Notes under the pieces: model-generated
The model's input: only the letters and a program-made list of their open reading frames with translations
The model's database searches: none
Told to the model about the DNA's origin: nothing
Program-made: the position numbers and the translations under genes
Part shown: piece by piece, positions 33,211 through 61,134 of the stretch
How the letters are laid out: every line of letters begins with the position of its first letter
How positions within the stretch are numbered: position 1 is the first letter of the stretch
Source: an uncultured Methanosarcinales archaeon
Lineage (GTDB): Archaea > Nanobdellota > Nanobdellia > Woesearchaeales > CAYSVS01
Direction: 5' to 3'
NCBI GenBank assembly: GCA_964589485.1
Contig: CAZPRK010000001.1
Span: 48,369-112,368 of the forward strand
DNA: 64,000 nucleotides

Positions 33211-33240
33211 CCGCTTCTGATGGAAATTCTCGTAGGGGGT
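33211..33240 (+). promoter_or_regulatory. ORB-like element abutting the cdc6 start (also carries the GGGGG SD)
   Basis: CCGCTTCTGATGGAAATTCTCGTAGGGGGT resembles the euryarchaeal ORB pattern (TTCCAGTGGAAAT...GGGGG) recalled from memory. It lies 4 nt upstream of the cdc6 ATG. Confidence 0.35.
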
Positions 33241-33244
33241 AAAG

Positions 33245-35988: not shown

Positions 35989-35989
35989 A

Positions 35990-42584: not shown

Positions 42585-43113
42585 ATTAGATTTTATAAAT
42601 AAAAGAAAAAATTTATCAAATATAGAAATAGCTTCAAAAAGTAATAAAATAATAATTAATTTAAAAAATTTAGACTTAATTAAAAAAGCAAAAAACATTT
42701 TTATTTATGCTTCAAATAAATATGAAGTACAAACTTTAAATTTTATAAAAGATAATTTAATTAAAAAAAACATATTTTTACCTTTTAAAGATGAATTAGA
42801 GAATGTATACCAAGTACAAAATATAAATGAATTAATTTTTGATTCTAGGGGAATATTACAACCAATAAAAAATCAACCATTATCTTTAAGTAATATTGAC
42901 ATTTTTGTTATTCCAGGAGTTGTTTTTGATAAAAAATTCAATAGAATAGGACACGGGAGTGGTTTTTTTGATAAGTTATTAAAAATAATAAATAAACCTA
43001 AAGTTGCTTTAGCTTATAAATTTCAAATTATTAATGAAATTCCAAATGAAAAACATGATATTGAAATGAATTACATTGTTAATGAAGAAGGTGTGTTAAA
43101 AAATGATAATTGA
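42568..43113 (+). CDS. 5-formyltetrahydrofolate cyclo-ligase (MTHFS)
   Basis: About 180 aa with GHGSGFFD-type motif. Confidence 0.65.
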   Translation: MKNQLRLDFINKRKNLSNIEIASKSNKIIINLKNLDLIKKAKNIFIYASNKYEVQTLNFIKDNLIKKNIFLPFKDELENVYQVQNINELIFDSRGILQPIKNQPLSLSNIDIFVIPGVVFDKKFNRIGHGSGFFDKLLKIINKPKVALAYKFQIINEIPNEKHDIEMNYIVNEEGVLKNDN

Positions 43114-43930: not shown

Positions 43931-44517
43931 ACATTGCAGTTTTAGGATCAACCAAAGGGACTGATTTACAAGCTATAATAGATAGTAAATATAAACAAAA
44001 TATAAAATTAGTTTTAAGTAATAAAAAAGATGCTTATATTTTAGAAAGGTCTAAAAAAGTTAATTTAAATTCAATATTTCTTGATTCAGAAGGAAAATCA
44101 AGAGAAGAATATGATTTAGAATTACATAATTTATTTATAAAACATGAAATAGATATAGTTCTTCTTATTGGTTATATGAAGTTACTATCTGAAGATTTAG
44201 TTAACAAATGGAAAATTTTCAATATTCATCCTTCTTTACTTCCTGCTTTTGCAGGACAAATAAATTTAAATGTACACCAAGCAGTATTAGATAGAGGGTG
44301 TAAAGTAACAGGATGTACTTTAATTTTAGTAGATGAAGGTGCAGATACAGGTCCAATCATTATACAGAAGAGTACAAAAATTGATAAAGAAGACACAATT
44401 TTCTCATTAAAAGAAAAAGTTCAAAAATTAGAACAAGAAACTCTACTTGAATTTTTAAGTCTATATCAAGATGAAAAAATTAAGCTAATAAATAATAAGG
44501 TCGAAATTCATGGATAA
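43927..44517 (+). CDS. purN: Phosphoribosylglycinamide formyltransferase (GAR Tfase); start is non-canonical (CTG at 43927 or ATT at 43921/43933)
   Basis: Conserved N-terminus LNIAVLGSTKGTDLQAIID aligns with E. coli MNIVVLISGNGSNLQAIID. It lies upstream of the first in-frame ATG (44176) and after an in-frame TAG at 43915. GGGG lies 6 nt before the CTG. NIHPSLLP motif present. Confidence 0.75.
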   Translation: MNIAVLGSTKGTDLQAIIDSKYKQNIKLVLSNKKDAYILERSKKVNLNSIFLDSEGKSREEYDLELHNLFIKHEIDIVLLIGYMKLLSEDLVNKWKIFNIHPSLLPAFAGQINLNVHQAVLDRGCKVTGCTLILVDEGADTGPIIIQKSTKIDKEDTIFSLKEKVQKLEQETLLEFLSLYQDEKIKLINNKVEIHG

Positions 44518-45895
44518 ATTTGATAACATAAGCCCTATAGATTTTAGATATTATGGAAATAATAAAATATTATATGATAAATCTAACTTATATCTTTCAG
44601 AAAAAGCATTTATTAATTATTTTATTAAAGTAGAATTAGCTTTAGTAAGGGTTCTTTATAGAAGAAATTTAATTAGTCTAAATATTTTAGAGGAAATAGA
44701 AAAAGCTTGTCATGAAGTTACTTCAAATGAAGTATACGAAGAAGAATTAAGAATAAAACATAATGTAAGAGCTTTAGTAAATTGTATAAGGAGTAAAGTT
44801 TCAGATGAAGCTAAACCTTTTATTCATTTAACAGCTACTTCTCATGATATAATCTGTACAGCTGAAGCATTAAGGCTAAAAGAATTTACTTTTGACATAA
44901 TTTTACCTGAATTATTAAATTTTCATAAAATTCTTTCAGATTTAGCCATACGTGAAAAACATACTTTACAAACAGGAAGAACTCATGGACAACATGCTGT
45001 TCCAATTACTTTTGGGTTTACTATTTCAGAATATGTTGCAAGGTTAGGTGAACAAATTTTAAAAATTAAAGAAAACGCATATGATCTAAGAGGAAAATTA
45101 TCTGGTGCAGTTGGAGCATATAATGCATCTACTTTATTATTTGAAGATTCAATTGAATTTGAGAAAGAAGTTTTATTAGAATTAAAATTAAAACCATCAA
45201 CTCACTCAACTCAAATTCTACCCCCTGAATTTATTTTAAATTTAACACATTCAATTGTCACATGTTATGGAGTGTTGGCAAATTTAAGTGATGATATGAG
45301 ACATTTACAAAGAAGTGAAATTTTGGAAATTGCAGAAGAGTTTGATAAAAATCAAGTCGGAAGTTCTACTATGCCTCATAAAAGAAATCCAATTAATTTT
45401 GAAAATGTAAAAAGTATGTGGAAAGTTATAATGCCTAGAATGATTACAATGTATTCAGATCAAATCTCCGAACATCAGCGAGATTTAACTAACTCAGCTT
45501 CTTCTAGATTTATTCCTGAAATATATGTTTGTTTTTTAGAATCAGTATTAAGGTTAAGTAAACAAATGTTAAAATTAATTGTAGATAAAAAAAACATTCA
45601 AAAAAATTTTGATCTTAATAAAAATATGATTATTGCAGAACCTTTGTATATTTTATTAGCATATTATAAACATCCTAATGCTCATGAAGTTATAAGAAAA
45701 TTGACTTTACAAAGTCAAACTGAAGATATTTCATTATCTGAATTAGTATTTAAAAGTGAAGAATTGAAATTTTATTTAGATAAGATGACAGATACTCAAA
45801 AGGAAATAATATCTTTCCCTGAAAAATATATTGGCAAATCAATTAAAAAAGTTGATTTAGTAGTTGATTATTGGAGGGAAAAATTAAATGAGTAA
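44510..45895 (+). CDS. purB: Adenylosuccinate lyase
   Basis: Fumarate-lyase family SSTMPHKRNP signature. Confidence 0.9.
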   Translation: MDKFDNISPIDFRYYGNNKILYDKSNLYLSEKAFINYFIKVELALVRVLYRRNLISLNILEEIEKACHEVTSNEVYEEELRIKHNVRALVNCIRSKVSDEAKPFIHLTATSHDIICTAEALRLKEFTFDIILPELLNFHKILSDLAIREKHTLQTGRTHGQHAVPITFGFTISEYVARLGEQILKIKENAYDLRGKLSGAVGAYNASTLLFEDSIEFEKEVLLELKLKPSTHSTQILPPEFILNLTHSIVTCYGVLANLSDDMRHLQRSEILEIAEEFDKNQVGSSTMPHKRNPINFENVKSMWKVIMPRMITMYSDQISEHQRDLTNSASSRFIPEIYVCFLESVLRLSKQMLKLIVDKKNIQKNFDLNKNMIIAEPLYILLAYYKHPNAHEVIRKLTLQSQTEDISLSELVFKSEELKFYLDKMTDTQKEIISFPEKYIGKSIKKVDLVVDYWREKLNE

Positions 45896-47165
45896 TGCTA
45901 TAGTTTTAGGAAGTCAATTTGGAGATGAAGGAAAAGGAAAAATTGTAGATTATTTAGCAGACAAATTTAATTATATTATACGTTTTCAAGGTGGAAATAA
46001 TGCAGGTCATACTGTTGTTGTGGGTAATAAAACATATAAATTTCATTTAATTCCATCAGGAGTAATAAAAGGTATTCCTTCCATTTTGGGAAATGGTGTT
46101 GTTATTGATGTTGATGTTTTATTACAAGAAATGTCTCAATTAGAAAATATTAATTCTGAAAACTTTCTTATAAGTGAAAAAGCTCATGTGATTTTATTTT
46201 ATCATAAACTATTAGATTCATTACAAGAAATGATTAGAGAAAATAAAATAGGAACAACAGGAAGAGGAATAGGTCCATGTTATACTGATAAAATATCTCG
46301 ATCTGGAGTTCGTATAATGGATTTAGAAAATATAGATTTAACTTCTAAAGTTCAAGAAATATTAAAACATTCAATTTCCATTGTTGGGGAAGAAAAAGTT
46401 AAAGAATATATAAAATCAACTGATTTTTATTCTGAAGAAAATATTATAGATATAGATAAAGTTAATTTACATTATAATGAATTGTTTACTAAGATAAAAC
46501 CATTTGTAAAAGATATAACTTTATTTTTATCAAAATCAGAAAACATACTTTTTGAAGGAGCTCAAGGTACAATGTTAGATGTAGACCATGGAACATATCC
46601 TTTTGTTACTAGTAGTAGTCCAAGTATAGGTGGAGCATTTACTGGAACTGGTGTTTACAAAAATATTTCTCAAAGAATAGGAATAGTTAAAGCATATTTA
46701 ACAAGAGTTGGTGCAGGTGTAATGCCTACTGAATTAAATGATGATATTGGAAAACAAATTCAAACTAAAGGTCATGAATTTGGTACAACAACCGGAAGAA
46801 CAAGAAGATGTGGATGGCTTGACTTGATTCAATTAAAATACTCTTGTATAATTAATGGGTTTACTGAGTTTGTTTTAACAAAACTAGATGTATTGGATAC
46901 TTTGGATGTAATTAAAATTTGTGTGGGGTATGAGTATAACGGGGAAGTATTACAAAATTATCCAACAGATGTTAAAATTTTAGAAAAATGTACTCCTGTT
47001 TTTATTGAATTAAAAGGTTGGAATCAAGATATAACCAATATTAAAAATTATTCAGATTTACCAAAGAATGCTAAATTATATATCTCTAAAATTGAAGAAT
47101 TAAGTAATGTTCGGGTTAGTATAGTTTCAGTTGGTCCTGAAAGAGAACAAAGTATCATGAAGTAA
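45888..47165 (+). CDS. purA: Adenylosuccinate synthetase
   Basis: GSQFGDEGKGK P-loop; GNNAGHT. Confidence 0.9.
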   Translation: MSNAIVLGSQFGDEGKGKIVDYLADKFNYIIRFQGGNNAGHTVVVGNKTYKFHLIPSGVIKGIPSILGNGVVIDVDVLLQEMSQLENINSENFLISEKAHVILFYHKLLDSLQEMIRENKIGTTGRGIGPCYTDKISRSGVRIMDLENIDLTSKVQEILKHSISIVGEEKVKEYIKSTDFYSEENIIDIDKVNLHYNELFTKIKPFVKDITLFLSKSENILFEGAQGTMLDVDHGTYPFVTSSSPSIGGAFTGTGVYKNISQRIGIVKAYLTRVGAGVMPTELNDDIGKQIQTKGHEFGTTTGRTRRCGWLDLIQLKYSCIINGFTEFVLTKLDVLDTLDVIKICVGYEYNGEVLQNYPTDVKILEKCTPVFIELKGWNQDITNIKNYSDLPKNAKLYISKIEELSNVRVSIVSVGPEREQSIMK

Positions 47166-48255
47166 TTTTATCCAATGTATTTTTCTCAATAGCTTCTTTA
47201 ATATCCGTAGCTATTCTTTCACCATAACTAATACTTTCTCCATATAAATACCCAGAATAAGGTGTAAACATTGTCCCAGGAGATCCAGGTATTCTCATAC
47301 TTACGTCAAAAATTACAATAACTTCTTTTCCATCTTCAGTAGAAACTGCTCCTTGTAGAGCAAATGGACCAATTATTCCAGGTGAACATTCTTCTTGAGT
47401 TGTTTTAACAAATTTTTCACCAATTTCGAAAGCTTTTTCCAAGATACTTTCTTTTATTGTAACTCCGTAATGTCCGCTTTCTATTATTTTAGGTTTTACA
47501 TATTCTAAAACCTTTAACTGTTCATCTGCTGGCAAACGTAACAATCCATCTAAATTAGTTTGTCTTCTTGTATCAGTCCCCATTAATTCTAATTCATTTG
47601 AATAAAAATAATTAAAATTTACATGCGCGCCTAAAATATACTCTTCTATTATGGCTTTATTTAAAGCTTCTTTGGTTATGGTTCCTTCATTTATCATTTT
47701 TTGACTTTTATCTAAATAATCCTCATAAGATATAGCAAAAAAGAAAGCTCTTTCATACCCTCTTGCAGCTTCATTTACTTTAACAATAACTAATTTATTT
47801 ATTTCTTTTGGCGAAATAAATATTTTAGGAAATCTTATTCCTGCTTTTTCTAATAAATAGTATTGATTTTTTTCAACATCTCTTTCTTCTAATTTTAACA
47901 TTTCTCTACTCCCGTATATTGGTACTTTAAAGTCATTTTCAATTTCATTAAAATTACAATAAACCCAAAAATATCTATTATGGATAAAAATAGTATTCCT
48001 GGATATTAATTCATCTTGAATGTTAATTATATCTTTAAAATTATCAACTAAAATAACTTCATCTATTATTCCTTTTCCATCTCTAGTTTTATAATATTGA
48101 GAATAAGTTTTATCTCTTCCTTTTTGACATATAGCTAATGTCTTAAATCCTAACTTTTTAGCTCCATGGCATACATCTAATGCACTATGCCCTCCTAATA
48201 CGCCTATTGTAACATTATTTTTATCATATTTAGATAAAATTTCAGAAACATCCAT
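47155..48255 (-). CDS. purP: FAICAR synthetase PurP (ATP-grasp, archaeal)
   Basis: PurP-family N-terminus IGVLGGHSALDV.GAKKLGFKT and ATP-grasp layout. Confidence 0.8.
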   Translation of the reverse strand: MDVSEILSKYDKNNVTIGVLGGHSALDVCHGAKKLGFKTLAICQKGRDKTYSQYYKTRDGKGIIDEVILVDNFKDIINIQDELISRNTIFIHNRYFWVYCNFNEIENDFKVPIYGSREMLKLEERDVEKNQYYLLEKAGIRFPKIFISPKEINKLVIVKVNEAARGYERAFFFAISYEDYLDKSQKMINEGTITKEALNKAIIEEYILGAHVNFNYFYSNELELMGTDTRRQTNLDGLLRLPADEQLKVLEYVKPKIIESGHYGVTIKESILEKAFEIGEKFVKTTQEECSPGIIGPFALQGAVSTEDGKEVIVIFDVSMRIPGSPGTMFTPYSGYLYGESISYGERIATDIKEAIEKNTLDKITS

Positions 48256-49278
48256 TTAATGTAACACCTTATTTAATTCGTTTTTTTCAATTGCTTGTTT
48301 AATATCTAACGCTATCCTTCTTCCTGTACTCATCGGAACATCATATTTTAAATCAGTATATGGAGATCCATTAATGTAAGGATTTGTTCCTGCCACAATT
48401 CTTGCACTTATTTCAAAGACAAAAAACTCTTGTTCAGGGGTTAATATAGCTTCTAAGCAAAAAGGTCCAAACAATCCTGGAGAACAAATTTCTTGAGATA
48501 CTTTAACTACTTTTTCTCCCATTTCAATAACTATTGGAAGTAAACTTTCCCGTAAAACTAATGGAATGTTTCCTACAATGACATAAGATGGATCTACTTT
48601 TTTTAATGCTATTTGATCTCTTGCTGATATTCTTCCTAGGCTATCAACATTACTTTCATACCTTTTATCAAAACTCATAATTTCAAGTTCATTAGTTAAT
48701 GGAGAATAAAAAAAATGTACATATATAGGAACTCCAATTATATATTCTTGTATAACTAACTTTTTTTTTTCTTTTTCACTATAAGTTTTAGTTTTTGCAA
48801 CAAAGTCATTATATGAATTTGCAATAAAATATCCTTCTCCCCCTTTTGCTCCATGATGTTTAACAATAACTGGACAATCTATTTTTTCAGGTGAATCAAA
48901 AATTCTAGGTAATTTAAGTCCGGCTTTACTTAACCATTCCCTTTCTTTATTTCTATCACTTTCCCATTTTAAAATTTTTTTATTTCCATAATACATTCCT
49001 TGTAAATTTTCACACCTTTCATGACCTAAGTAAGCAACAAAACTACCATGCGGAATCATTATAACATTTTTTTCTAATAATTCTTTATCTATTTTTTCAT
49101 AATCATCAAAATTATCAACTTCAATAATTTCATCTGCAACGTTAAACATTTTATAAACTTTAGATTTATTTTTTTGACAAATTACAACAGTTTTAAAACC
49201 TTCATCTTTAGCTCCTTTTAGAATTTGTAAAGCACTGTGACTTCCAATTGTTCCAATAGTATAATCTTGAAAACCCAT
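48256..49278 (-). CDS. PurP-family paralog (ATP-grasp)
   Basis: IGTIGSHSALQILKGAKDEGFKT, paralogous to the adjacent PurP. Confidence 0.75.
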   Translation of the reverse strand: MGFQDYTIGTIGSHSALQILKGAKDEGFKTVVICQKNKSKVYKMFNVADEIIEVDNFDDYEKIDKELLEKNVIMIPHGSFVAYLGHERCENLQGMYYGNKKILKWESDRNKEREWLSKAGLKLPRIFDSPEKIDCPVIVKHHGAKGGEGYFIANSYNDFVAKTKTYSEKEKKKLVIQEYIIGVPIYVHFFYSPLTNELEIMSFDKRYESNVDSLGRISARDQIALKKVDPSYVIVGNIPLVLRESLLPIVIEMGEKVVKVSQEICSPGLFGPFCLEAILTPEQEFFVFEISARIVAGTNPYINGSPYTDLKYDVPMSTGRRIALDIKQAIEKNELNKVLH

Positions 49279-49375
49279 AATTAAAGAAATAGTTGACTTT
49301 ATTTAAACTTTTCTCATGTAAAATAAACAAAAGGATATATAGGACGTTTATAATATATGAATAAAAAAGTAGTAT

Positions 49376-51214
49376 TTGAGTCTAGAAATCCTTATAAACG
49401 CATTGTTAAGTTTTTATTTCATGTCTGTTGCTATAATGGATTTTGGTGCTCAATATGCAAAAGTTATTGATAGGAGAGTTAGAGAATTAAATATATATTC
49501 TGAAATAATTGATCCAAAATCATCATTAGATAAGTTAAAAGAATATGATGCAATTATTTTATCTGGTGGACCTAATAGTGTATATAAAAACAAAATTAAA
49601 TATAATAAAAATTTATTTAAATTAAAAAAACCAATTTTAGGAATATGTTATGGGATGCAGTTAATTAATTTTCATTTTAAAGGAAAAGTTAATTCTTCAA
49701 ATGTTAAAGAATATGGAGAAACTATTATTTCAACTCAACCTTGTAAATTATTTAAAAATTTAGATGAAAATCAAGAAGTCTTAATGAGTCATGGTGATAG
49801 TATAAGTAAGTTAGGAACTGGGTTTGAAGCAATTGCAAAATCAAATGACATTATAGCTGGAATTGCTAATGAAAAAAATAAAATATATGGTTTACAATTC
49901 CATCCTGAAGTAGATCTAACAAAAAATGGAAAAAAAATGTTAGAAAACTTTTTATTTGAAATTTCAGATTTAAAATCAAATTATACTTTAACAAATAGAA
50001 TTTCTTCTACATTAAATGAAATAAAAACTATTGTTAAAGATAATAAAATTTTAGTTTTAGTTTCAGGGGGAGTTGATTCTGCTGTAACTGCGGCCTTATT
50101 AATTAGAGCTTTAAATGAAGATCAAGTTTATGCTTTACACATTGATCATGGTTTTATGAGAAAAAATGAAAGTAAATCTGTATGTGTGGCTTTAAAAGAT
50201 ATAGGGTTAAAAAATTTGGTACATGTTAATGCTAAAGATAAATTTTTTGATGAATTACACAAAGTAACTGATCCTGAAAAAAAGAGACAAAAAATAGGAG
50301 ACTTATTTATGAAAATTGTAGATGAAGAAGTTGAAAAATTAAACTTACCTATTAATACATTTATTGCTCAAGGTACATTGAGACCTGATTTGATAGAGAG
50401 TGCAAGTTCTTTGGTAACGACTAAAGCTAATAAAATTAAAACTCATCACAATGATTCCAAATTAGTTAGAGAAAAACGAAAGTTAGGGTTAGTTTTAGAA
50501 ACAAATAAAGATTTACATAAAGATGAAGTAAGAAAAGTTGGTCAATTATTAGGCTTACCTGAATATATTGTTAACAGGCACCCTTTTCCAGGTCCAGGTT
50601 TGGCGATAAGAATTATATGTGCGGATAAACCATATGATAAAAACTATGATAAAATATCTAAACAAATAGAAAATATTGTTAAACCATATAACTTAAAATC
50701 AAAATTAATTCCTGTAAGATCGGTTGGTGTTCAGGGAGACCATAGAAGTTATAGTTATGTTGTAGGAATAATAGGAAAAGGCCATTACCCTAATTTAAGG
50801 GAATTAGCATTAAAAATTCCCAAAAAAGTTCATGAAGTTAACAGGGTAATATATTTTTTCGAAGAAAATTCATTAGATTTTAAATTTCATAAAACAGAAT
50901 TAAATAATGAAAATGTAAATCAATTACAAGAAGCTGATTTTATTGTTAGGCAAAAATTTAAAAAACATAACCTTATGCATAAAATTAGTCAAGCAGTAAT
51001 TGTATCTTTACCAATTGGTATTTCAGGAAAAACCATTGTTATTAGACCATTCGTTACTAATGATTTTATGACTGGTAGACCGGCTAACTGGGGGGAAGAG
51101 GTTACAATTAAGTGTTTAAAAGAAATAGTAAAAGAATTAAAAAATTTAAAAGGAATATCTAATGTGGCATATGATTTAACAAGTAAACCGCCAGGAACTA
51201 CGGAGTGGGAATAA
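49376..51214 (+). CDS. guaA: GMP synthase, fused GATase plus ATP-pyrophosphatase (probable true start at internal Met about 49421-49436)
   Basis: FGAQY...GICYGMQ class-I GATase; SGGVDS PP-loop; C-terminal dimerisation domain. Confidence 0.9.
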   Translation: MSLEILINALLSFYFMSVAIMDFGAQYAKVIDRRVRELNIYSEIIDPKSSLDKLKEYDAIILSGGPNSVYKNKIKYNKNLFKLKKPILGICYGMQLINFHFKGKVNSSNVKEYGETIISTQPCKLFKNLDENQEVLMSHGDSISKLGTGFEAIAKSNDIIAGIANEKNKIYGLQFHPEVDLTKNGKKMLENFLFEISDLKSNYTLTNRISSTLNEIKTIVKDNKILVLVSGGVDSAVTAALLIRALNEDQVYALHIDHGFMRKNESKSVCVALKDIGLKNLVHVNAKDKFFDELHKVTDPEKKRQKIGDLFMKIVDEEVEKLNLPINTFIAQGTLRPDLIESASSLVTTKANKIKTHHNDSKLVREKRKLGLVLETNKDLHKDEVRKVGQLLGLPEYIVNRHPFPGPGLAIRIICADKPYDKNYDKISKQIENIVKPYNLKSKLIPVRSVGVQGDHRSYSYVVGIIGKGHYPNLRELALKIPKKVHEVNRVIYFFEENSLDFKFHKTELNNENVNQLQEADFIVRQKFKKHNLMHKISQAVIVSLPIGISGKTIVIRPFVTNDFMTGRPANWGEEVTIKCLKEIVKELKNLKGISNVAYDLTSKPPGTTEWE

Positions 51215-52782
51215 TGAAAGTTTTAATAAGCGTATTTGATAAAAAAAATGTTGTTTCTTTTGCTAGAAGTTTGATTAATTTGAATTATGAAATATTATCT
51301 ACAGGTGGAACAGCTACTTTACTTAGAGAAAATGGAATTCAAGTAACTGAAGTTTCTGATGTAACTGAACATCCTGAAATTTTAAATGGAAGAGTAAAAA
51401 CAATGCATCCTAAAATTCTAGGAGGTATTTTAGCTTTAAATAATGATATTCATTTAAAAGACTTGAATGATAATAATATTTCACGTATAAATTTAGTTGT
51501 AGTTAATTTATATCCATTTGAAGAAACTATTTCAAAAGAAGGAATAAATTTAAGTGAAGTTTTAGAAAACATTGATATTGGTGGCCCAAGTTTATTAAGA
51601 AGTGCAGCTAAAAATTTTCATAACTGTCTTCCAGTTTGTAGTCCTGATGATTACGATTTAGTAATATCAAACCTGAAAAATGAAAATTTAACAACAGAGT
51701 TTAAAGAATATTTAGCTGTAAAAGCTTTTGAAAAAACAGCTGATTATGATGCAAAAATTCATAGTTATTTAAGTGAAAAATTATTATCTAAAAAAATATT
51801 AAGTTTAAAATATGGAGAAGGTAAAAATCTAAGATATGGTGAAAATTCACATCAAAATGCAGCATTTTTTAAAACTAAATCAAAAGAACCAAGTGTTTCC
51901 AATGCAAAAAAATTAAACGGAAAAGAATTATCTTACAATAATATAATTGATATAAATTCTGCATTAGAAGTTATAAAAGAACTAAATACAAAAAATACTG
52001 TATCTGTTGTAAAACATAATAATCCTTGTGGTTTAGCTACAGGTGAAACTTTAAAAGAAGCATTAGAAGCAGCTTGGAGCGGAGATACAGTTTCAGCTTT
52101 CGGAAGTATAATTGCTATGTCATCAGAAGTTGATATAGAGACTGCAAAGTTTTTTGAAGGAAAGTTTGTTGAAGTTATTATAGCTCCTTCTTATGCTTTA
52201 GATGCTTTAGAATATTTAAAACAAAAAAGTAAAAATTTAAGACTTTTAGAAACAGGTGAATTAACAAGTAGTAAAAGTAAAAAAAGTTATAAATCTGTAA
52301 CTGGTGGAATATTAGAACAGGATTCGAATGTATTAAATTATGAAACATGGAACTGCGTTACAAATGAACCTTTTCCAAATAATAAAAATGAATTAGCAAA
52401 ATTTACTAACATTGCTGCAAAAAATACTAAATCTAATGCTGTTGTTTTAGGTTATGAATACAAACCTGGTTTTTATAAAGTATTAGGTATGGGTGCAGGT
52501 CAACCTAATAGAGTAGATGCATTACGAAAATTATCTATTCCTAAAGCTATAGAAAATTTAAAATCAAAAGATGAAACTTATATTAAATCACAATTAAATG
52601 AATGCGTATTAGCTTCAGATGCTTTTTTCCCTTTTGATGATACTGTTAGGGAAGCTTTTACTTACGGAATAAAATACATTGTCCAACCAGGTGGAAGTAT
52701 ACGAGATGAAGAAGTTATTAATGCTTGTAATGAATTAAAACAAGCAATGGTTTTTACTAACACTAGGCATTTTTTACATTAA
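51205..52782 (+). CDS. purH: Bifunctional AICAR transformylase / IMP cyclohydrolase
   Basis: MGS-like domain ILSTGGTATLL...KTMHPKILGGIL followed by AICARFT domain. Confidence 0.85.
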   Translation: MGIMKVLISVFDKKNVVSFARSLINLNYEILSTGGTATLLRENGIQVTEVSDVTEHPEILNGRVKTMHPKILGGILALNNDIHLKDLNDNNISRINLVVVNLYPFEETISKEGINLSEVLENIDIGGPSLLRSAAKNFHNCLPVCSPDDYDLVISNLKNENLTTEFKEYLAVKAFEKTADYDAKIHSYLSEKLLSKKILSLKYGEGKNLRYGENSHQNAAFFKTKSKEPSVSNAKKLNGKELSYNNIIDINSALEVIKELNTKNTVSVVKHNNPCGLATGETLKEALEAAWSGDTVSAFGSIIAMSSEVDIETAKFFEGKFVEVIIAPSYALDALEYLKQKSKNLRLLETGELTSSKSKKSYKSVTGGILEQDSNVLNYETWNCVTNEPFPNNKNELAKFTNIAAKNTKSNAVVLGYEYKPGFYKVLGMGAGQPNRVDALRKLSIPKAIENLKSKDETYIKSQLNECVLASDAFFPFDDTVREAFTYGIKYIVQPGGSIRDEEVINACNELKQAMVFTNTRHFLH

Positions 52783-54170
52783 TCTTTTCTGGAAAGAACT
52801 CTACTCATTGCCATTTCATTTTTTTGTTTATCTGATATAGATAATGGATATTTTCCATTCAAACACGCCATACATAAATCTATTTTTTTTGTAGCCTCAA
52901 TAATATTTTCAATTTTTTGATAAGTTAAAGAATCAGCATCAATATAATTTCTAATTTCTTCAATTTCTTGATTATTTGCAATTAATTCTTCTTTTGTCGG
53001 CATATCTATTCCATAATGGCATGGATATTTTATTGGTGGACATGTTGAAATAAAATGTACTTCTTTTGCTCCAGCGTTTCTTAACAATTTAATGATTTTT
53101 TTAGATGTAGTTCCTCTAACAATACTATCGTCAATTACAGCAACTCTTTTTCCATTAACTACAGCCTTAATTGGATTTAATTTAACTCTTACTGCATTTT
53201 CTCTTTTTTTTTGAGTTGGCATAATAAAAGTTCTACCTAAATATCTATTCTTAACCAGCCCTTCTCTATATTTTATACCCAAAACTTCTGCAAATTTTAT
53301 GGCGGCAGCTCTTGCAGTATCTGGAACAGGAATTACTACATCTATTTCTTTTTTCCAATCTCTTGCTAACAGTTCTCCTAGTTTTAATCTAGCATTATAT
53401 ACAGATCTATCATCGATGAATGATTCTGGTCTAGCAAAATAAACCCATTCAAACATACAATGTGCTCTTTTTGTTTGTTTAATTATTTTAGATGTAATGT
53501 TTAAATTTTTATCAATAACAACTGCTTCACCTGGTTGAACATCTTTTATTCGTTTAAATCCTAATGTTTGAAATACAACACTTTCAGATGCAACACAAAT
53601 TTCACCTTCTTTTTCCCCAATTACTAATGGCCTAAACCCGTTTGGGTCACGGAAAGCTATAATACTTTTATTACCAACTGCTGCAACAACGCTATAACTT
53701 CCTTCAATTCTCCCCATTAAAGTCTCAATAGCCTCAAAATAACTTTGTTTAGTTTCAATTTCATAAGCAAGAATTTTATTTATTATTTCAGCATCTGAAG
53801 ATGAATCAAGAAAAATTCCTTTTTTTAATAATAATTGTTTAATTTCTTCATAATTTGTTAAATTTCCATTATGCGCTGTAGCAATTTTATGGGACGCATT
53901 TGCAAGAAAAGGTTGAGTTTCATTATCTGAATCAGTTCCTGCTGTTGGATATCTTGTATGTCCAATTCCTAAATTTCCTTGAACATTTTCAACAACGTTG
54001 CTTTCAAAAATATCATTTATAAGCCCTTTACTTTTTTTAATAAAGTGAGAATTTTCGTTAAATACTGCAACACCTGCAGCATCTTGTCCTCTATGTTGTA
54101 GCGCTGTCATTCCAAAAATCAAATTATGAATTACTGGTTTATCACCTATAAGCCCAATCACACCACACAT
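52779..54170 (-). CDS. purF: Amidophosphoribosyltransferase
   Basis: MCGVIGL N-terminal Cys nucleophile and PRTase domain. Confidence 0.9.
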   Translation of the reverse strand: MCGVIGLIGDKPVIHNLIFGMTALQHRGQDAAGVAVFNENSHFIKKSKGLINDIFESNVVENVQGNLGIGHTRYPTAGTDSDNETQPFLANASHKIATAHNGNLTNYEEIKQLLLKKGIFLDSSSDAEIINKILAYEIETKQSYFEAIETLMGRIEGSYSVVAAVGNKSIIAFRDPNGFRPLVIGEKEGEICVASESVVFQTLGFKRIKDVQPGEAVVIDKNLNITSKIIKQTKRAHCMFEWVYFARPESFIDDRSVYNARLKLGELLARDWKKEIDVVIPVPDTARAAAIKFAEVLGIKYREGLVKNRYLGRTFIMPTQKKRENAVRVKLNPIKAVVNGKRVAVIDDSIVRGTTSKKIIKLLRNAGAKEVHFISTCPPIKYPCHYGIDMPTKEELIANNQEIEEIRNYIDADSLTYQKIENIIEATKKIDLCMACLNGKYPLSISDKQKNEMAMSRVLSRKD

Positions 54171-54184
54171 TATAATTTCCTCTA

Positions 54185-56449
54185 TTATTCCATCATATAA
54201 GAACTTTGCGTTCCTGCATTTTGAAGTTTTTCTATTTTTTCAATATTTTTCTGTAATAAGTAATTTTTAGCTTTATCATTCACTAAACTTAACATTTGTG
54301 CTATATGTCTTACTACATTTTTTATATTTAAAATTAATGAATTTGAACTACCGGGGGGGTTATTTATACAGGAAGAATATTCTTTTGAATCTGGCGGACA
54401 ACTTATTACAGGATGTATTGAATGAAAAGAAACTACTCCACTTAATGCATCTGTGCCACCAGCTATTGTAACAAAAACAATAGGTTCTAACGAATTATTA
54501 AATTTTTTAATAAATTCTTCACTTTCTGCAGGTTGTTTATGAGCTGAACAAATTTTAGTTTGATATGCTATTCCGTAATTTTTAAGCTCAAGTACAATTT
54601 TATCAATATGTTCTTGGTCACTATCACTTCCTGCCATTATAACTACCGTACTTCCACTTATATATTGTGATTCTTTTAAGTTATGTATTAAATTATTTCT
54701 AACATTTCCTTCAGGGAACTTAAACACTTCTCCAGTTAATTGTTCATAAAGTTTAATATATCTATATGAGCATTCAATAATATCTTCATCTGCTAATTTA
54801 GGGATTTCTCCTGAGCTATCGTAACTAAATCCTTTTTCTGTTAAAACATCCCTAATGAATTGTTTAGATAGTTCTTTAATTTTTAAATTAGGATTTTGTT
54901 TTAATACTTCATTAACATCATTCCCTAAAGAAGAAATTTCTTTAAACTTTTCATATTCTTCAATGGTACAATATCTTGAAGAGTCTGGTGTATTAGCTTC
55001 ATCAATTAAACATAACTCGTTATTTTCATCTAATCCAAATTCATACTTAGTGTCAATAAAAACTAATCCTGATTTTTGAGCTAATTCTTCTCCTCTTTTG
55101 TACAATTTAAGTGAAATTTCTTTTACTTTAAGAGCTAATTCTTTTCCTATTTTATTTTCAACTTCTTCAAACGTCATAGGTTCATCGTGTTCAGATTTGG
55201 TTGTGGGAGTAAATATAGGTTCATTTAATTTCTGGTATCTTTTTAATCCATCTTTTAAAATGTTACCACAAAAATTTCTATCACCTTTTTCATAAGCTTT
55301 AGCCATACTTCCCCAAACATATCCTCTTACAACACATTCAACCATTATATTTTTACAATATTTTTGTATAAGTACATTTTTATCTGGACTTTTAATATTA
55401 GCGTTTTTAACAATATCAACTGTTTGATTCATAGACCAATCATTTATCTGGTTAAGAACCATTCCTTTAAATGGAATTTGTCTATCTAAAACATGATCAA
55501 ATGCACTAACTCTGTCACTTGCAATCATAAAATTTTTTTCTCCAATTTGTTTTTTTCCTAGATGCACATGTCGCACTTTACCTTTAATTTCTTCTCCTAA
55601 TTCAGGAACATATGCATAATTTAATGTATTGTTTAAATTCAATTTTATAATTTCTTTGTAATCCATTTTATTTTCCTCCTTGAAATAATTAACAGCATTT
55701 TGAAAAATTTGTAAATTATTTTTAAAAAAACCATTTTCTTTTTTATGATAAAAATCAGGTGAATTTATTTTATAAATTGCTCTTTCAGGATGAGGCATCA
55801 TTCCCATAATTCTTCCAGAGAAGTCACATATTCCTGCTATATCTTCCATAGAACCGTTAGGGTTAAATGGATATTCTCCATTAGCAAATGTAGAGTTATT
55901 CATATATTTGAAAACAATTTGATTTTTTTCTTTTAATAAATTTAATATATTTTTATTACAATAAAATTTACCTTCTCCATGTGCAATAGGCATTTTAATA
56001 ACTTTTATGTTTTTTGTAAAAACGCAATTGGTTTCTAAAGTTTGTAATTTTACCCATCTACATTCATATCTTTCTTGATTATTTGGAATTAATGCTACAT
56101 TTCTTTCACCGTATTCTTTTTCATTTAATGCAAATAGTCCTAAGTTAACCATTACTTGAAAACCATTACATATTCCAAGAATAAGTTTTTTATCTTGAAT
56201 AAACGTTATTAATTTATCCCATAAATTATTTTTTATTTTATTAGCTAATGCATTTCCACTTCCTGTGTCGTCTCCATATGAAAATCCCCCGGGGAACATA
56301 AGAATATCGTAATTAGTTAGATTAACTTTATTGGAAATTAAATCATTTACATGAACTATTTCAGAAGTAGCTCCAACTAATTCGAATGCATGTGCACTTT
56401 CTTTTTCACAATTAATCCCATACCCTGATAATATTAAAACTTTTACCAT
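54185..56449 (-). CDS. Trifunctional fusion: FGAM synthase glutaminase (PurQ) - SAICAR synthetase (PurC) - AIR carboxylase (PurE)
   Basis: Residues about 1-260 are PurQ-like (GICNGFQ, HGEG, MPHPER). Residues about 265-610 are PurC (ASDRVSAFD). Residues about 615-754 are PurE (VVIMAGSDSD, AGGTDALSG). Confidence 0.8.
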   Translation of the reverse strand: MVKVLILSGYGINCEKESAHAFELVGATSEIVHVNDLISNKVNLTNYDILMFPGGFSYGDDTGSGNALANKIKNNLWDKLITFIQDKKLILGICNGFQVMVNLGLFALNEKEYGERNVALIPNNQERYECRWVKLQTLETNCVFTKNIKVIKMPIAHGEGKFYCNKNILNLLKEKNQIVFKYMNNSTFANGEYPFNPNGSMEDIAGICDFSGRIMGMMPHPERAIYKINSPDFYHKKENGFFKNNLQIFQNAVNYFKEENKMDYKEIIKLNLNNTLNYAYVPELGEEIKGKVRHVHLGKKQIGEKNFMIASDRVSAFDHVLDRQIPFKGMVLNQINDWSMNQTVDIVKNANIKSPDKNVLIQKYCKNIMVECVVRGYVWGSMAKAYEKGDRNFCGNILKDGLKRYQKLNEPIFTPTTKSEHDEPMTFEEVENKIGKELALKVKEISLKLYKRGEELAQKSGLVFIDTKYEFGLDENNELCLIDEANTPDSSRYCTIEEYEKFKEISSLGNDVNEVLKQNPNLKIKELSKQFIRDVLTEKGFSYDSSGEIPKLADEDIIECSYRYIKLYEQLTGEVFKFPEGNVRNNLIHNLKESQYISGSTVVIMAGSDSDQEHIDKIVLELKNYGIAYQTKICSAHKQPAESEEFIKKFNNSLEPIVFVTIAGGTDALSGVVSFHSIHPVISCPPDSKEYSSCINNPPGSSNSLILNIKNVVRHIAQMLSLVNDKAKNYLLQKNIEKIEKLQNAGTQSSYMME

Positions 56450-59283
56450 TCTTTAAACCTTTCACGATATATTTTATCTAATTCATTAACTTTAATATTG
56501 AGAACTTCTTTATTATCTTTTATTACAAAATCTTGACCTTCAACTACACCTATGTGAAATAAATTAAATTCTTTAAGTTCTTCTTCTATAATATTTTTAT
56601 GTTTTTTATTTATTGTAACAACAAATCGAGATTGAGATTCAGAATATGATTTAGTAAACGTGTTAATAGAGGGTATTGCTTTAATGTCAACATTAACACC
56701 AAGTTGTCCTGCGATTGACATTTTTGCTAAACATGTTATCAATCCCCCTCTTTCAATTGATGCACAGGAATTAAAAATTTCTTTTTGATGTATTTCATAC
56801 ATTTTTTCATATAATTGCCTAGCTTTTTTCGCATTAACTTTTGGAGACTTAAAGCTCTTTTTACCTAATATGTAAAATACTTCACTGCCTCCCATTTCAT
56901 CAAAAGTATCCCCTATTAAATAAATTAAATCTCCTTCTTTTTTTATATCCATTGAACAAGTTTTGTTTACATCTTCAATTACACCTATGCTGGAAATTAA
57001 TAAAGTTGGATTTATGGAAATGTTTATTTCTTCATTTTTATCATTAAATCCTTTAAAGTCATTAAACATACTATCTTTCCCAGAAATAAAAGGAGTCATA
57101 AATTCAGTAGCATAGTTATAACATCCTCTGGCTGCAGCTTCCAATTGAAATAATTTTTTAGAATCATTAGAACTACACCAACAAAAATTATCAAGTAATG
57201 CTAAATGATTAATATTTCCTCCAACAGCTACACAATTTCTGATAGCAGTATCTATCGCATTTGCAGCCATATCGTAACAATTTATTTCACTTAACCTTGG
57301 ATTTAAATGTTGGGATAAAACAACACCTTTATTAGAATTAAAAAGTGGTTTAATTATGGATGTATTTCCGTTAACTCTTCCTTTCCCTTGCAACGGTTTT
57401 AATATTGAATTACTTTGAACTTCATGATCATATTGTTTAGAAATAAATTCAGTACTACAAATATTATGACTTCCAATAACTTTTTTAAATAAAGCTAATT
57501 GATCAATTTCTTCAATTTCATCTTCATAATCAATATAATTATATTTTTCAGTTTTTAATATTTTAACTGGGTTTCCATTATGCAAAAATTCCATATCCAA
57601 ATTTAAAATCTCTTTTCCATAAAAATTCACAATAGCTTTTTCACTTGAATTAAATTTTCCTATTATTGTTGTTTCTACATCTCTACTTTCCATTAAATTA
57701 ATAAATTCTTGTAATTTATTATCTGAAATTGACAAAGTCATTCTTTCTTGAGATTCAGAAATCCAAATTTCCCATGGATCAAGTCCAGGATATTTTAGTT
57801 TAACTTTTTCTAAGTCTACAATAAATCCACCGCATTCTTTAGCCATTTCCGCAACACTACAACTTAATCCGCCTGCGCCATTATCAGTTATACTGTTAAA
57901 TAAATTTAAATCTCTTGCTTCTTTTATTACTGCATCTGATAATTTTTTTTGTGTTATAGGATCTCCAATTTGAACCGCTGTAGCTGGACTTTTTTCATCT
58001 AATGTTTCCGATGAAAAAGTTGCTCCATGTATACCATCTTTTCCAACTCTTCCTCCTATAATAACAATATTGTCATTAGGAAGTGCCTTTTTTTCATAAT
58101 AAATTCTATTTTTTTTTTTTCTTGGAATTAAACCAATTGTTCCAACAAAAACTAAAGGCTTTCCTTTATAACTTTCATCAAAATTAACAAACCCTGTAGG
58201 TGTAGGAATGCCTGAACAATTACCTCCAACATTTACACCTTCAATTATTCCTTTTAATATTCTAGACGGAGGTAACATGGCATTATTTTGATTTTTTCCT
58301 CTAAATAATAATGAATTATCTTCAGGTTTTGCAACACAAAATCCATACCTGTTTGCGATTGGTAATGCTCCAATACCAAAACCAATAATATCTCTATTAA
58401 CTCCAACTATGCCTGTTATAGCGCCTCCAAATGGGTCTAAGGCACTTGGGCTATTATGAGTTTCTACTTTATCTGCGATAATATATTCATCATTAAATAT
58501 TATTCCGCCAGCATTATCATGAAATACACTTAAACAAAAATCATTTTTTTTTCTAATTTTTTCAGTTGCACCTTTAATATATTTTTTATATAATCCTTCT
58601 TTAACTTCTCCTAAAGGTGAGGCAAAAATAGTATGTTTACAATGTTCACTCCAAGTTTGAGCAATACTTTCAATTTCAATATCTCTAGGCTTCCTATTTT
58701 TAAAATATTCTTTTATTTTTTTCATATCTAATTCATCTAATGCTAATGTTCCTCTCCTAACATTATTAGAATCTAGAATACCTTTTTTTCCTAATTCAAT
58801 TAAATCAGCAGTTTCTAAATCTATTTCTAAAATTTCACCTTTAGAGTTAATTGAAACTTTTGGAATAATTAAATCCATATCTTTATCTTTTAAATATTGT
58901 TCATATGTTTTAATATGATATCTTTCAATTAATGGATTTATTTTTTTTAAAGCTATTTTTTCAACTTCATCTTTATTTAATTTTTCTGAAATAAAAATAG
59001 TATTAGAACTATATACAAAACTATTATCTTTTAATTTAAACATATCTTTAATTATTTCACTTGCAGTTTTTCCAACATTATCAGTAACCCCTGGAAGAAA
59101 GCCTAATTCTAAAACCCAATGACATTCAACTTTCTTTGGTTCATTAATCCTTATTTCTTCTATTACTGGGTTGTGTAGGGCATTAGCAATTCGATTAATT
59201 TCAGTTTCTGAGAAATTTCGATCTATAGTGTAAACTTTACTAAATAACTTAGAATTAATTTTAGAATCGATTGAAATCCTCAT
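56443..59283 (-). CDS. purL: FGAM synthase PurL with about 200-aa N-terminal PurS-like / lgPurL-N-like extension
   Basis: 946 aa. The conserved SEHCKHTIF sits about 215 residues in. The N-terminus LGFLPGVTDNVGKTASEII resembles PurS. Confidence 0.85.
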   Translation of the reverse strand: MRISIDSKINSKLFSKVYTIDRNFSETEINRIANALHNPVIEEIRINEPKKVECHWVLELGFLPGVTDNVGKTASEIIKDMFKLKDNSFVYSSNTIFISEKLNKDEVEKIALKKINPLIERYHIKTYEQYLKDKDMDLIIPKVSINSKGEILEIDLETADLIELGKKGILDSNNVRRGTLALDELDMKKIKEYFKNRKPRDIEIESIAQTWSEHCKHTIFASPLGEVKEGLYKKYIKGATEKIRKKNDFCLSVFHDNAGGIIFNDEYIIADKVETHNSPSALDPFGGAITGIVGVNRDIIGFGIGALPIANRYGFCVAKPEDNSLLFRGKNQNNAMLPPSRILKGIIEGVNVGGNCSGIPTPTGFVNFDESYKGKPLVFVGTIGLIPRKKKNRIYYEKKALPNDNIVIIGGRVGKDGIHGATFSSETLDEKSPATAVQIGDPITQKKLSDAVIKEARDLNLFNSITDNGAGGLSCSVAEMAKECGGFIVDLEKVKLKYPGLDPWEIWISESQERMTLSISDNKLQEFINLMESRDVETTIIGKFNSSEKAIVNFYGKEILNLDMEFLHNGNPVKILKTEKYNYIDYEDEIEEIDQLALFKKVIGSHNICSTEFISKQYDHEVQSNSILKPLQGKGRVNGNTSIIKPLFNSNKGVVLSQHLNPRLSEINCYDMAANAIDTAIRNCVAVGGNINHLALLDNFCWCSSNDSKKLFQLEAAARGCYNYATEFMTPFISGKDSMFNDFKGFNDKNEEINISINPTLLISSIGVIEDVNKTCSMDIKKEGDLIYLIGDTFDEMGGSEVFYILGKKSFKSPKVNAKKARQLYEKMYEIHQKEIFNSCASIERGGLITCLAKMSIAGQLGVNVDIKAIPSINTFTKSYSESQSRFVVTINKKHKNIIEEELKEFNLFHIGVVEGQDFVIKDNKEVLNIKVNELDKIYRERFKEW

Positions 59284-59346
59284 AAAAACACCTTACTTTA
59301 GGCTTTAAACTTCTTTATTTAAAGATTATTCTTGTTGAGAATATAG

Positions 59347-60018
59347 TTATTGACTTACCATCAATAAAGAACCATTTCCATCTAAAAATACTGGTTTAAC
59401 GTATGCTATTTGAGTAAAGTTTAATTTTTTTGAATATATTATTGTACTTGGACTTCCTTCCATAGCTTCTACAATTATTTGTTTACCTTTTAACCTTTTA
59501 ATTCTTTCATTTACAAGTTTCATTGCAATTCCTTTTCCTTGATATTTTGGTATAACTCCTAAATCAGTAAGGTGAGCTAATTTATTTGGCTTTAAGATAA
59601 CTTTATTTCTAGCAAAAAGAATATTTACTTTAGGTTCGCCTGGTTGCTCATAACTAGTTTCAAAATGCTCAAACCCTTCAGCAGCATCATAAAATCCAAT
59701 ATTGACCCCATATTTACTTTTCCAAGGATCATGTTTTATTTTCTCAAGACTTAATCTAATTAAGTGTTCATTTGGTTTTTTAAAATTAAGGTGTTTTAAT
59801 AACATCAAACCTTCTATTCTTTCATTAGTTAAATCATCTGTTGTTTCAGTATACATACCATAACCTATAACTTTATCATCAATTTCTGCTACAATAGTTT
59901 TAGTATTTTTATCATTTAAATTACAAAATAACTCTTCTTCATTAAGCGTTGGAAAACAAAGTTTAATAACTTCTTCAATATTATCTTTTTTCTCTAATTC
60001 TCTGATAGTTGTTTCCAT
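59347..60018 (-). CDS. GNAT-family N-acetyltransferase
   Basis: LGVIPKYQGKGIAMKL (motif A, Q/RxxGxG/A). Confidence 0.55.
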   Translation of the reverse strand: METTIRELEKKDNIEEVIKLCFPTLNEEELFCNLNDKNTKTIVAEIDDKVIGYGMYTETTDDLTNERIEGLMLLKHLNFKKPNEHLIRLSLEKIKHDPWKSKYGVNIGFYDAAEGFEHFETSYEQPGEPKVNILFARNKVILKPNKLAHLTDLGVIPKYQGKGIAMKLVNERIKRLKGKQIIVEAMEGSPSTIIYSKKLNFTQIAYVKPVFLDGNGSLLMVSQ

Positions 60019-60042
60019 AAACTTATACTTTGTTTAGTATAC

Positions 60043-61134
60043 TTAAAAAACTAACTCTCCACCATTAAAACCTTTACTTTTAATTTTAATATCTGGGTTT
60101 TCAGTTACTTTCCCACAAACTTTAGCATTAATATTATATTTTAAAGCAATTTCAATTACTTTTTCAGGTTCAGGAGAAATTATCAATAACCCTTGCCCCA
60201 TACACCATGTTTTATACGCTTCAGAATCAGATATATTACCAATTTCTTGACAATGTAACATTAAAGAACATGGGTTAAATAAATTATCTAAAATAGCACC
60301 ATACCCATTAGTTTCTAAAACTCTTCTTAATTTTCCTACAACTCCTCCACCTGTAACATGTACAACTCCATTTAATTTAACTTTAGCTTCATTTTCAATT
60401 CCGCCAAACATATCACATACAGCTTTAGAGTAAATTTTACTAGGAAATAATGCAATATTACCAATTTTTTCTCCATTTAATTCAGAATTATGCCATTCGT
60501 CTCCATATTTCTCTGAAAGAACTTTTCTTAATAACGAAAACCCATTACTTCTAAACCCTTTTTCTTCTAAAGCGATAATAGAATCCCCGACTGAAATATT
60601 TTTTCCAGTAATAATTTTATTTTTATTTACAAACCATACAACTGTTGAACCCCAGTTATAGTTAAATTTACCAAATCCATTAACTCTTTTTCCAATTTCA
60701 GCAATTTCTCCGTTTACAACTACAACATTAGCTTCCTCAGCAGCTTTAATATATCCTTGAGCTAATTCTTTCATTAAATTAACATTTATACTATTTACGT
60801 CTAATATACTTCCAATTATAACTGGTTCAGCTCCTCTAACGATGGCATCATCACAAACCATTGCAAATAAATCAAATGCTATTGTATTATGTTTATTCAT
60901 TCTTTCGGCTATTTCAATTTTAGTTCCAACTCCATCAAATCCGATGTTCATTAAAGTACCTTGTGGCAAAGAAGAAATATCAATAACTCTTAATCCTGAA
61001 AAATCATCCGTTGGCGTAATAACTTTTCCTAATCCTTGTCTATTTTTCCAAGTTTCTTTAGCAGCATTATAAAAAATTTTACTAACTTCATCACCTAATT
61101 CAGTATTAACGCCAGATTCAGCATAATTAGTCAT
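60043..61134 (-). CDS. purM: AIR synthetase
   Basis: DGVGTK motif and overall match to E. coli PurM. Confidence 0.9.
   Translation of the reverse strand: MTNYAESGVNTELGDEVSKIFYNAAKETWKNRQGLGKVITPTDDFSGLRVIDISSLPQGTLMNIGFDGVGTKIEIAERMNKHNTIAFDLFAMVCDDAIVRGAEPVIIGSILDVNSINVNLMKELAQGYIKAAEEANVVVVNGEIAEIGKRVNGFGKFNYNWGSTVVWFVNKNKIITGKNISVGDSIIALEEKGFRSNGFSLLRKVLSEKYGDEWHNSELNGEKIGNIALFPSKIYSKAVCDMFGGIENEAKVKLNGVVHVTGGGVVGKLRRVLETNGYGAILDNLFNPCSLMLHCQEIGNISDSEAYKTWCMGQGLLIISPEPEKVIEIALKYNINAKVCGKVTENPDIKIKSKGFNGGELVF

Follow-up and report, generated by a model that had tools for sequence, protein, structure and literature searches.

The stretch of DNA that we analyzed, which we call the window, is 64,000 nucleotides (nt) of contig CAZPRK010000001.1 from GenBank assembly GCA_964589485.1. 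It carries a gene, here called purQCE, in which three enzymes of purine biosynthesis are joined in a single open reading frame (ORF): the glutaminase PurQ, the synthetase PurC, which makes succinylaminoimidazole carboxamide ribonucleotide (SAICAR), and PurE, which acts on aminoimidazole ribonucleotide (AIR). We are fairly confident that purQCE encodes a genuine trifunctional protein that arose through the loss of a stop codon. In this protein, PurQ would serve the PurSL enzyme encoded by the neighboring gene, PurE would carboxylate AIR and PurC would make SAICAR.

The ORF list and the sequence itself both show that the gene begins with ATG and runs for 754 residues (aa) without an internal stop. 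A first-pass annotation, made from the sequence alone, had proposed a triple fusion that ties step 4 of the pathway (PurQ) to steps 6 and 7 (PurC and PurE) in one polypeptide. Pfam, NCBIfam, sequence matches in the Protein Data Bank (PDB) and structure matches from Foldseek all bear this out. In Pfam, each of the three domains scores well over its cut-off: GATase_5 (PF13507) over residues 2–256 with 280 bits (cut-off 27), SAICAR_synt (PF01259) over residues 289–503 with 175.5 bits (cut-off 20) and AIRC (PF00731) over residues 602–734 with 74.9 bits (cut-off 30). The NCBIfam model for PurQ, TIGR01737, is also above its cut-off (201.4 against 177.8). We checked the two places where a frameshift had been suspected, at about 55660 and about 54640. 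Both junctions are in frame, with linkers of about 4–8 residues and no hidden stops.

Other NCBIfam models do not support the assignment as well, and these scores have to be counted against it. The PurC model NF009251 covers residues 273–593 with 281 bits, under its cut-off of 371, and the purE model TIGR01162 covers residues 602–744 with 70.5 bits, under its cut-off of 149.6. The PurC domain also falls short of NF010568 (224.5 against 251) and TIGR00081 (133.9 against 189.9). Judged by these scores, the PurC domain appears to be a divergent subfamily that is covered by no equivalog model.

An AlphaFold2 model of the whole protein, built on 76 sequences, had a mean predicted local distance difference test score (pLDDT) of 93.1 and a predicted template modeling (TM) score (pTM) of 0.71. 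When we searched this model with Foldseek, the PurQ part matched the glutaminase domain of Salmonella lgPurL with a root mean square deviation (rmsd) of 2.2–2.6 Å and the PurQ of Thermotoga maritima in the PurLQS complex (3d54_D) with a TM score of 0.86. The PurC part matched the yeast SAICAR synthase Ade1 (2cnq; TM 0.83, rmsd 2.9 Å). The top match was human PAICS (6yb8_A), with both domains aligned in order and an E-value of 7e-28.

Table 1. The purQCE gene, its parts and the neighboring genes of the window (all coordinates are window positions).
Feature	Position	Strand	Description	Evidence or remark
purQCE	54185..56449	-	single 754-aa ORF: PurQ glutaminase + SAICAR synthetase + class II-like PurE	domains, assemblies, AlphaFold2
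PurQ domain	55679..56449	-	residues 1–257; glutaminase of formylglycinamidine ribonucleotide (FGAM) synthetase	
Linker EENK	55667..55678	-	4 residues between PurQ and PurC	
PurC domain	54662..55666	-	residues 262–596; SAICAR synthetase, long yeast/mycobacterial type	
PurE domain	54188..54661	-	residues 597–754; class II-like	
AAGGAGG, resembling a Shine-Dalgarno (SD) sequence	55681..55675	-	8 nt upstream of ATG 55666..55664 (Met262)	former purCE start
purSL ('mdPurL')	56443..59283	-	946 aa; PurS-like N-domain + small PurL	TIGR01736, PurS homologues, AlphaFold2
purF	52779..54170	-	amidophosphoribosyltransferase; 14 nt downstream of purQCE	GATase_7 + Pribosyltran
GNAT gene	59347..60018	-	between purM and purSL	GNAT profile matches
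purM	60043..61134	-	AIR synthetase (step 5); upstream of the GNAT gene and purSL	AIRS + AIRS_C

The catalytic triad of the PurQ domain is intact, with Cys94 in GICNGFQ and His220 and Glu222 in MMPHPER. When it is aligned with the glutaminase domain of Salmonella lgPurL, GICNGFQ lies over GVCNGCQ and MMPHPER is identical. The Cys-His-Glu triad is the one named for PurQ-type glutaminases (PMC3261824). For the neighboring PurSL, TIGR01736 gave 539 bits over residues 182–945, and scans with Pfam and NCBIfam profiles found no glutaminase domain, as had been noted for this PurL in the first pass. At the N-terminus of PurSL, Pfam PurS gave no direct match even at E-values up to 1, and a profile of five sequences gave only a weak PurS match against the PDB (E 0.31). 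However, 22 of 63 homologues of residues 1–215 match Pfam PurS, the best with an E-value of 3e-10, and one homologue of this segment is named PurSL by NCBI. The AlphaFold2 model of the N-domain (pLDDT 94) matches the N-domain of lgPurL (E 1.7e-5) as well as the PurS structures 1vq3, 1gtd and 1twj. We conclude that PurSL is a PurS-like N-domain fused to a small PurL, without a glutaminase domain. It is of the type that Brown et al. described as mdPurL in archaea without purS (PMC3261824).

The stop codon of purSL overlaps the start codon of purQCE in the sequence ATGGTAA, a 7-nt overlap. All the fused homologues that we examined, in three related loci (L082, L083 and L086), also have a PurSL gene directly upstream, with ends that overlap or abut. 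Because PurSL has no glutaminase domain and the two genes overlap, we take the PurQ domain to be the trans-acting glutaminase of PurSL. The first-pass annotation had made the same proposal, and it is the obvious reading for a PurL without a glutaminase domain when tblastn finds no second purQ in the window (nor a further purC or purE, nor any purK). In archaea and Gram-positive bacteria PurQ normally acts in trans (PMC3261824), so the unusual part is only that PurQ is fused to PurC-PurE. We treated the overlap of the two genes as ordinary translational coupling. A programmed frameshift that would join PurSL to PurQCE at ATGGTAA was considered and rejected on inspection, because the 0-frame TTT-AAA-GAA-TGG contains no X-XXY-YYZ slippery site.

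This arrangement is similar to the PurLQS complex (T. maritima 3d54 and Bacillus subtilis) and to lgPurL (Salmonella 1t3t) in having PurS-like, PurL and PurQ modules with the Cys-His-Glu triad, and the order purS-purL-purQ in the window is collinear with the domain order of lgPurL. It differs from both in that PurS is fused to PurL, while PurQ is on a separate chain that also carries PurC and PurE.

We next consider the other two domains. The best PDB sequence matches of the PurC domain are yeast Ade1 and the PurC of Mycobacterium abscessus, and PAICS is matched by sequence only through the PurE part of the protein. The PurE domain has the motifs GSDSD (residues 607–611), SAHK (635–638), AGGTDALSG in the 70s loop (663–671) and SCPP (683–686). 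Its highest PDB scores are to class II enzymes (71.5 bits to the PurE of Treponema denticola, 69.6 to another, 57 to human PAICS and 53 to Bombyx PAICS), whereas the best class I enzymes score 50 and 45 bits and the PurE of Escherichia coli scores 19. GSDSD and SAHK align with Gly273–Asp277 and Ser301–Lys304 of human PAICS. The motif PVISCPP is shared with PAICS, and a C-terminal helix is common to the domain, PAICS and T. denticola PurE. A list has been published of the residues in human PAICS that bind or deprotonate the substrate in the AIR carboxylase active site (PMC9376930). When we aligned the domain to PAICS, 11 of these 18 residues were kept: Gly273, Ser274, Ser276, Asp277, Ser301, Ala302, His303, Lys304, Ala329, Gly330 and Leu335. 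From these comparisons we regard the domain as class II-like, meaning nearer to the class II than to the class I enzymes, and therefore it probably carboxylates AIR directly with CO2, without PurK or adenosine triphosphate (ATP).

Two observations weigh against this chemistry. The 70s loop reads AGGTDALSG and not the class II AGRSN(A/G)L, with Gly, Thr and Asp where PAICS has Arg331, Ser332 and Asn333, and direct carboxylation is not assured because of this departure. In addition, a relative in the Nanoarchaeota (locus L083) uses PurK, fused as PurQ-PurC-PurK, along with a separate PurE, which leaves room for class I-type chemistry in the window PurE as well. The domain might then be a mutase of N5-carboxyaminoimidazole ribonucleotide (N5-CAIR), as in class I, or it might rely on N5-CAIR that forms without an enzyme, with PurK encoded elsewhere in the genome. 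The altered loop, the TIGR01162 score far under its cut-off and the PurK-using relative would all fit such an enzyme, and Brown et al. noted archaeal PurEs that fit neither class (PMC3261824). We nevertheless consider it unlikely. The best sequence matches are class II enzymes, the motif is SAHK rather than SAHR, and the CPP motif and C-terminal helix are shared with T. denticola PurE and PAICS. Where the aligned class I PurE (3trh) has a His in its 70s loop, the residue is Ala both here and in T. denticola PurE. The 64-kb window encodes the rest of the pathway but no purK, and a more distant fusion with the same domain order (protein P0082) has the canonical loop AGRSNALSG.

The AGGTDALSG loop is common to a whole subfamily of PurC-PurE proteins from DPANN archaea and alveolates, which current equivalog models miss. 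These proteins are about 500 aa long and are annotated as 'AIR carboxylase family protein'. Residues 262–754 of the window protein belong to the same family, with 55–64% identity and the same loop, and the difference is that the DPANN and alveolate proteins are without the PurQ domain. In alveolates, too, the PAICS-like enzyme is a PurC-PurE with this loop, about 50% identical (P0003, P0004 and P0105). Amoebophrya has a tandem PurC-PurE-PurC-PurE of about 1070–1090 aa, and Vitrella has PurC-PurE too. Going by the sequences, this would imply either that the gene passed between archaea and eukaryotes or that both have an old lineage in common, distinct from animal PAICS.

The first-pass annotation had likened the PurC-PurE half to eukaryotic PAICS, and this is true in part. 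As in animal PAICS (PDB 2h31, 6yb8 and 4ja0), the SAICAR synthetase is N-terminal to PurE on a single chain, and the PurE part is class II-like with SAHK, PVISCPP and the C-terminal helix in common. The likeness does not extend to the PurC type, the 70s loop or the packing of the domains. The window PurC belongs to the long yeast/mycobacterial type rather than to that of animal PAICS, the loop is AGGTDALSG where PAICS has AGRSNGLGP, and there is an additional PurQ domain at the N-terminus. The C-E orientation also counts against the comparison, as superposing the two domains together gave an rmsd of about 23 Å and a TM score of 0.51, in a monomer model that is silent on assembly. Because of this different orientation, we confine the resemblance to domain order and PurE class; it is not a demonstration of common descent or of quaternary structure.

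The origin of the fusion can be read from its relatives. The closest relative in the genome collection (L001, 59% identity overall) has a purSL gene of 1015 aa, a purQ gene of 269 aa that ends in TAG and a purCE gene of 500 aa. Between the purQ TAG and the purCE ATG is a 12-nt spacer, AAAGGAATAACT. In the window the junction reads TAT TTC AAG GAG GAA AAT AAA ATG GAT, and the spacer is now the linker EENK. The triple fusion is thus derived, through the loss of the stop codon between an adjacent purQ and an already fused purC-purE. Of its two junctions, C|E is old and Q|C is young. The spacer of about 12 nt, including its ribosome-binding site, became the four-residue linker. Identity to the unfused L001 is 65%, 55% and 63% over Q, C and E, and to the fused L082 and L087 it is 56%, 54% and 52%. 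Other fused Q-C-E proteins have unrelated linkers of 30–85 aa. Because the unfused L001 is nearer than the fused L082 and L087, and because the linkers are unrelated, the Q-C-E fusion probably arose more than once.

The old start signal of purCE is still present at the junction. It is the sole AGGAGG-N5-10-ATG on both strands of the 64 kb and the strongest SD-like start signal there. About a quarter of the window's genes have an SD-like motif ahead of them, and most of these are operon-internal. This has to be held against a purely trifunctional enzyme, because with a strong SD-like motif and ATG retained, much of the PurC-PurE could be made separately. The fusion is also found in just a few lineages, and it may be neutral under selection. 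Taken further, Met262 would still be an internal start that gives free PurC-PurE alongside the full-length protein, and the fusion would be a recent, near-neutral read-through and not an obligate trifunctional enzyme. Apart from the start signal, such an account could draw on the linker, which is just four residues taken straight from the spacer, and on a Tara Oceans homologue (P0002 and the overlapping fragment P0389) that has a Met at the same position. That same homologue, however, keeps the full-length frame open at 74% identity, and other lineages hold Q-C-E fusions with very different linkers. We therefore find this account doubtful and continue to prefer a trifunctional protein.

The gene is reproducible across assemblies. 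The window is 100% identical to scaffold_26 (306 kb) of ENA ERZ23498905 across an overlap of 17.6 kb, and purQCE is base-for-base the same in three other contigs (ENA ERZ23498905, Logan SRR9166051 and ENA ERZ23499047). In a fourth sample (L081, ERZ23498677) the gene differs by one non-synonymous single-nucleotide polymorphism, Q334P. It is open throughout in all five contigs, the window's own included, and the junction is base-for-base equal in these five assemblies from at least four samples. In the Tara homologue the Q|C junction is likewise in frame as YFKEETKMDY; it reads YFKEETKMDYKEII, compared with YFKEENKMDYKEII in the window. We give almost no credence to a one-base insertion or deletion in the A-runs of the junction (GAAAATAAAATG) that merged two overlapping genes: the junction is A/T-rich with short homopolymers and the identical contigs all come from one environment or study, but its longest homopolymers are just 4 nt, five assemblies agree on it base for base, an organism 26% divergent has the matching in-frame junction, and four other lineages carry Q-C-E or Q-E-C fusions. 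Since the other contigs and the 74%-identical homologue keep the same open, continuous frame, we rejected a frameshift or stop artefact at either junction.

If the protein works as its domains suggest, the PurQ domain would dock on PurSL, whose gene lies upstream and is translationally coupled, and supply it with ammonia for step 4, the conversion of formylglycinamide ribonucleotide (FGAR) to FGAM. PurM, whose gene is part of the cluster, would then make AIR in step 5, which lies between the fused activities. The C-terminal PurE domain would convert AIR to carboxyaminoimidazole ribonucleotide (CAIR), and the central PurC domain would convert CAIR to SAICAR, as PAICS does. We infer these activities and the class II chemistry from domains and motifs, and the same is true of any benefit from the tether. 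The fusion would give equimolar synthesis of the three domains (1:1:1), and as a speculation, the tether could couple FGAM synthetase physically to a PAICS-like oligomer.

We looked for the same architecture in the databases, and it exists but is rare. When 167 related loci were scanned by script, a single-ORF Q-C-E turned up in just four (L081, L082, L085 and L087), a Q-E-C in L086 and a Q-C-PurK in L083 and L084; in most of the 167 loci purQ and purCE are unfused. Three further loci that were added after this survey, L168–L170, have the fusion gene of the window itself. The nearest relatives are unfused, with purQ and purCE adjacent in L001 and 3.5–6.5 kb apart in L002–L004 and L089. The dominant homologue is the PurC-PurE protein of about 500 aa described above, found at 55–64% identity in metagenome-assembled genomes of Woesearchaeota and Nanoarchaeota and also in the alveolates Amoebophrya and Vitrella.

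Only a handful of the best 120 matches from 5.8 billion clusters were Q-C-E proteins. In a search of representatives of clusters made at 50% identity, none of the best 150 spanned all three domains, although no firm frequency follows from this, since a cluster with fused members may be represented by a shorter protein. A search for homologues that span the junction found a single such protein (P0389) and missed the query's own cluster (P0001), so this census of Q-C fusions is incomplete. The Q-C-E proteins in the databases carry no descriptive name, and the literature that we searched, mostly outside subscription journals, describes no PurQ-PurC-PurE protein. PAICS, PurLQS, lgPurL, PurSL and the archaeal PurC-PurE fusion are all already known or annotated. 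The triple fusion is therefore a rare combination of known enzymes in a known pathway, made by an ordinary fusion mechanism, and it is less remarkable because a simple stop-codon loss produced it in a lineage rich in such fusions.

Several other pairings of pur genes occur in metagenomes: PurQ-PurC, PurQ-PurM, PurQ-PurE-PurC, PurE-PurM-PurC, PurD-PurC-PurE, PurN-PurC-PurE (P0011 and P0221) and PurB-PurM. We attribute sibling fusions such as PurN-PurC-PurE to the adjacency of their genes, because the order in L004 and L088 is folD, purN, purCE. The Nanoarchaeota locus with PurK (L083 8001–14627, GCA_030698805.1) encodes PurQ-PurC-PurK of 1021 aa, PurE of 317 aa and PurB-PurM of 873 aa. Further pur fusions are found among the homologues P0089, P0133, P0178, P0191, P0017 and P0011. 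In L093 (3989–5911), a stop-to-stop ORF of about 640 aa contains a PurQ homologue with 61% identity and has no match to PurC or PurE; it may be a fusion of the PurQ-PurM type. Together these cases suggest that neighboring pur genes fuse combinatorially in small archaeal genomes, and purQCE and its siblings show operon adjacency turning into multi-domain enzymes there.

Multi-enzyme proteins are familiar in purine synthesis, for example TrifGART (GARS-AIRS-GART), Ade2 (PurK-PurE) and PurH/ATIC. What purQCE shares with these and the metagenomic fusions is that adjacent genes of one pathway became covalently joined, in many cases across steps that do not follow one another. It differs from them in that we found Q-C-E with a four-residue first linker in no organism other than that of the window and its Tara relative.

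Fusions of this kind classically predict that the joined enzymes are associated, physically or functionally. We believe that purQCE is chiefly valuable as a 'Rosetta stone', hinting at an association between FGAM synthetase and a PAICS-like enzyme, and the gene is a ready-made construct for asking whether the two assemble and channel intermediates. In human cells, FGAM synthetase and PAICS are both components of the purinosome, with PAICS placed at its core, and assemblies centered on PurK-PurE-PurC have been proposed in bacteria (bioRxiv 10.1101/2025.07.15.664858). A tether between FGAM synthetase and a PAICS-like enzyme would echo both, by analogy and as speculation. A much bolder version, which we regard as a long shot, makes purQCE the 'Rosetta stone' for a prokaryotic purinosome. 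A PAICS-like PurE octamer would be the core of a megadalton particle, eight PurQ domains would each recruit a PurSL, and the internal start would tune the balance of free and tethered PurC-PurE. If this were true, sibling fusions such as PurQ-PurM, PurE-PurM-PurC, PurB-PurM and PurQ-PurC-PurK would map the contacts of the purine metabolon.

The gene lies in a purine supercluster of about 20 kb (41268–61134) that contains purD, MTHFS, folD, purN, purB, purA, two purP, guaA, purH, purF, purQCE, purSL, the GNAT gene and purM. All steps from phosphoribosyl pyrophosphate (PRPP) to inosine monophosphate (IMP), along with purA and guaA, are encoded within it. The gene purF is probably the last of a purM-GNAT-purSL-purQCE-purF transcription unit. 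The two PurP-like ATP-grasp paralogues beside a full PurH look redundant.

The purN homologue of the cluster (43921–44517, forward strand) shares 44.6% identity with the PurN part of P0011. It has no ATG, GTG or TTG until about residue 86, and its frame opens just past a stop within the end of folD, at GGG ATT AAA CTG. Either purN has a non-canonical start (ATT or CTG), or a one-nucleotide change in the GGGG at about 43918–43921 would fuse FolD and PurN in frame. In L004 and L088, folD and purN are separate and overlapping.

The window also encodes the archaeal markers TFIIE-alpha, Hjc, aIF-2B, Cdc6/Orc1 and the PolD subunits DP1 and DP2, and it has a GC content of 23–31%. The host is probably a low-GC archaeon of a DPANN/Nanoarchaeota-like type, with the DPANN placement coming solely from the taxa with which its closest homologues are labeled. 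No Rfam family matched in a scan of the window. In the region 33117–39502, the Cdc6/Orc1 gene (33245–34453), followed by the small and large PolD subunits (34447–39502), sits at the cumulative GC-skew minimum at about 32–34 kb, which suggests a replication origin just upstream of cdc6. A look for ORB-like repeats (origin recognition boxes) beside cdc6 turned up none that were convincing, only AT-rich chance repeats. At the start of the window, an ORF of at least 3953 aa (2–11860, reverse strand) runs off the edge and has at least 12 PKD-type repeats together with Lcl_C and Big_9 domains; it is probably a huge surface or adhesion protein.

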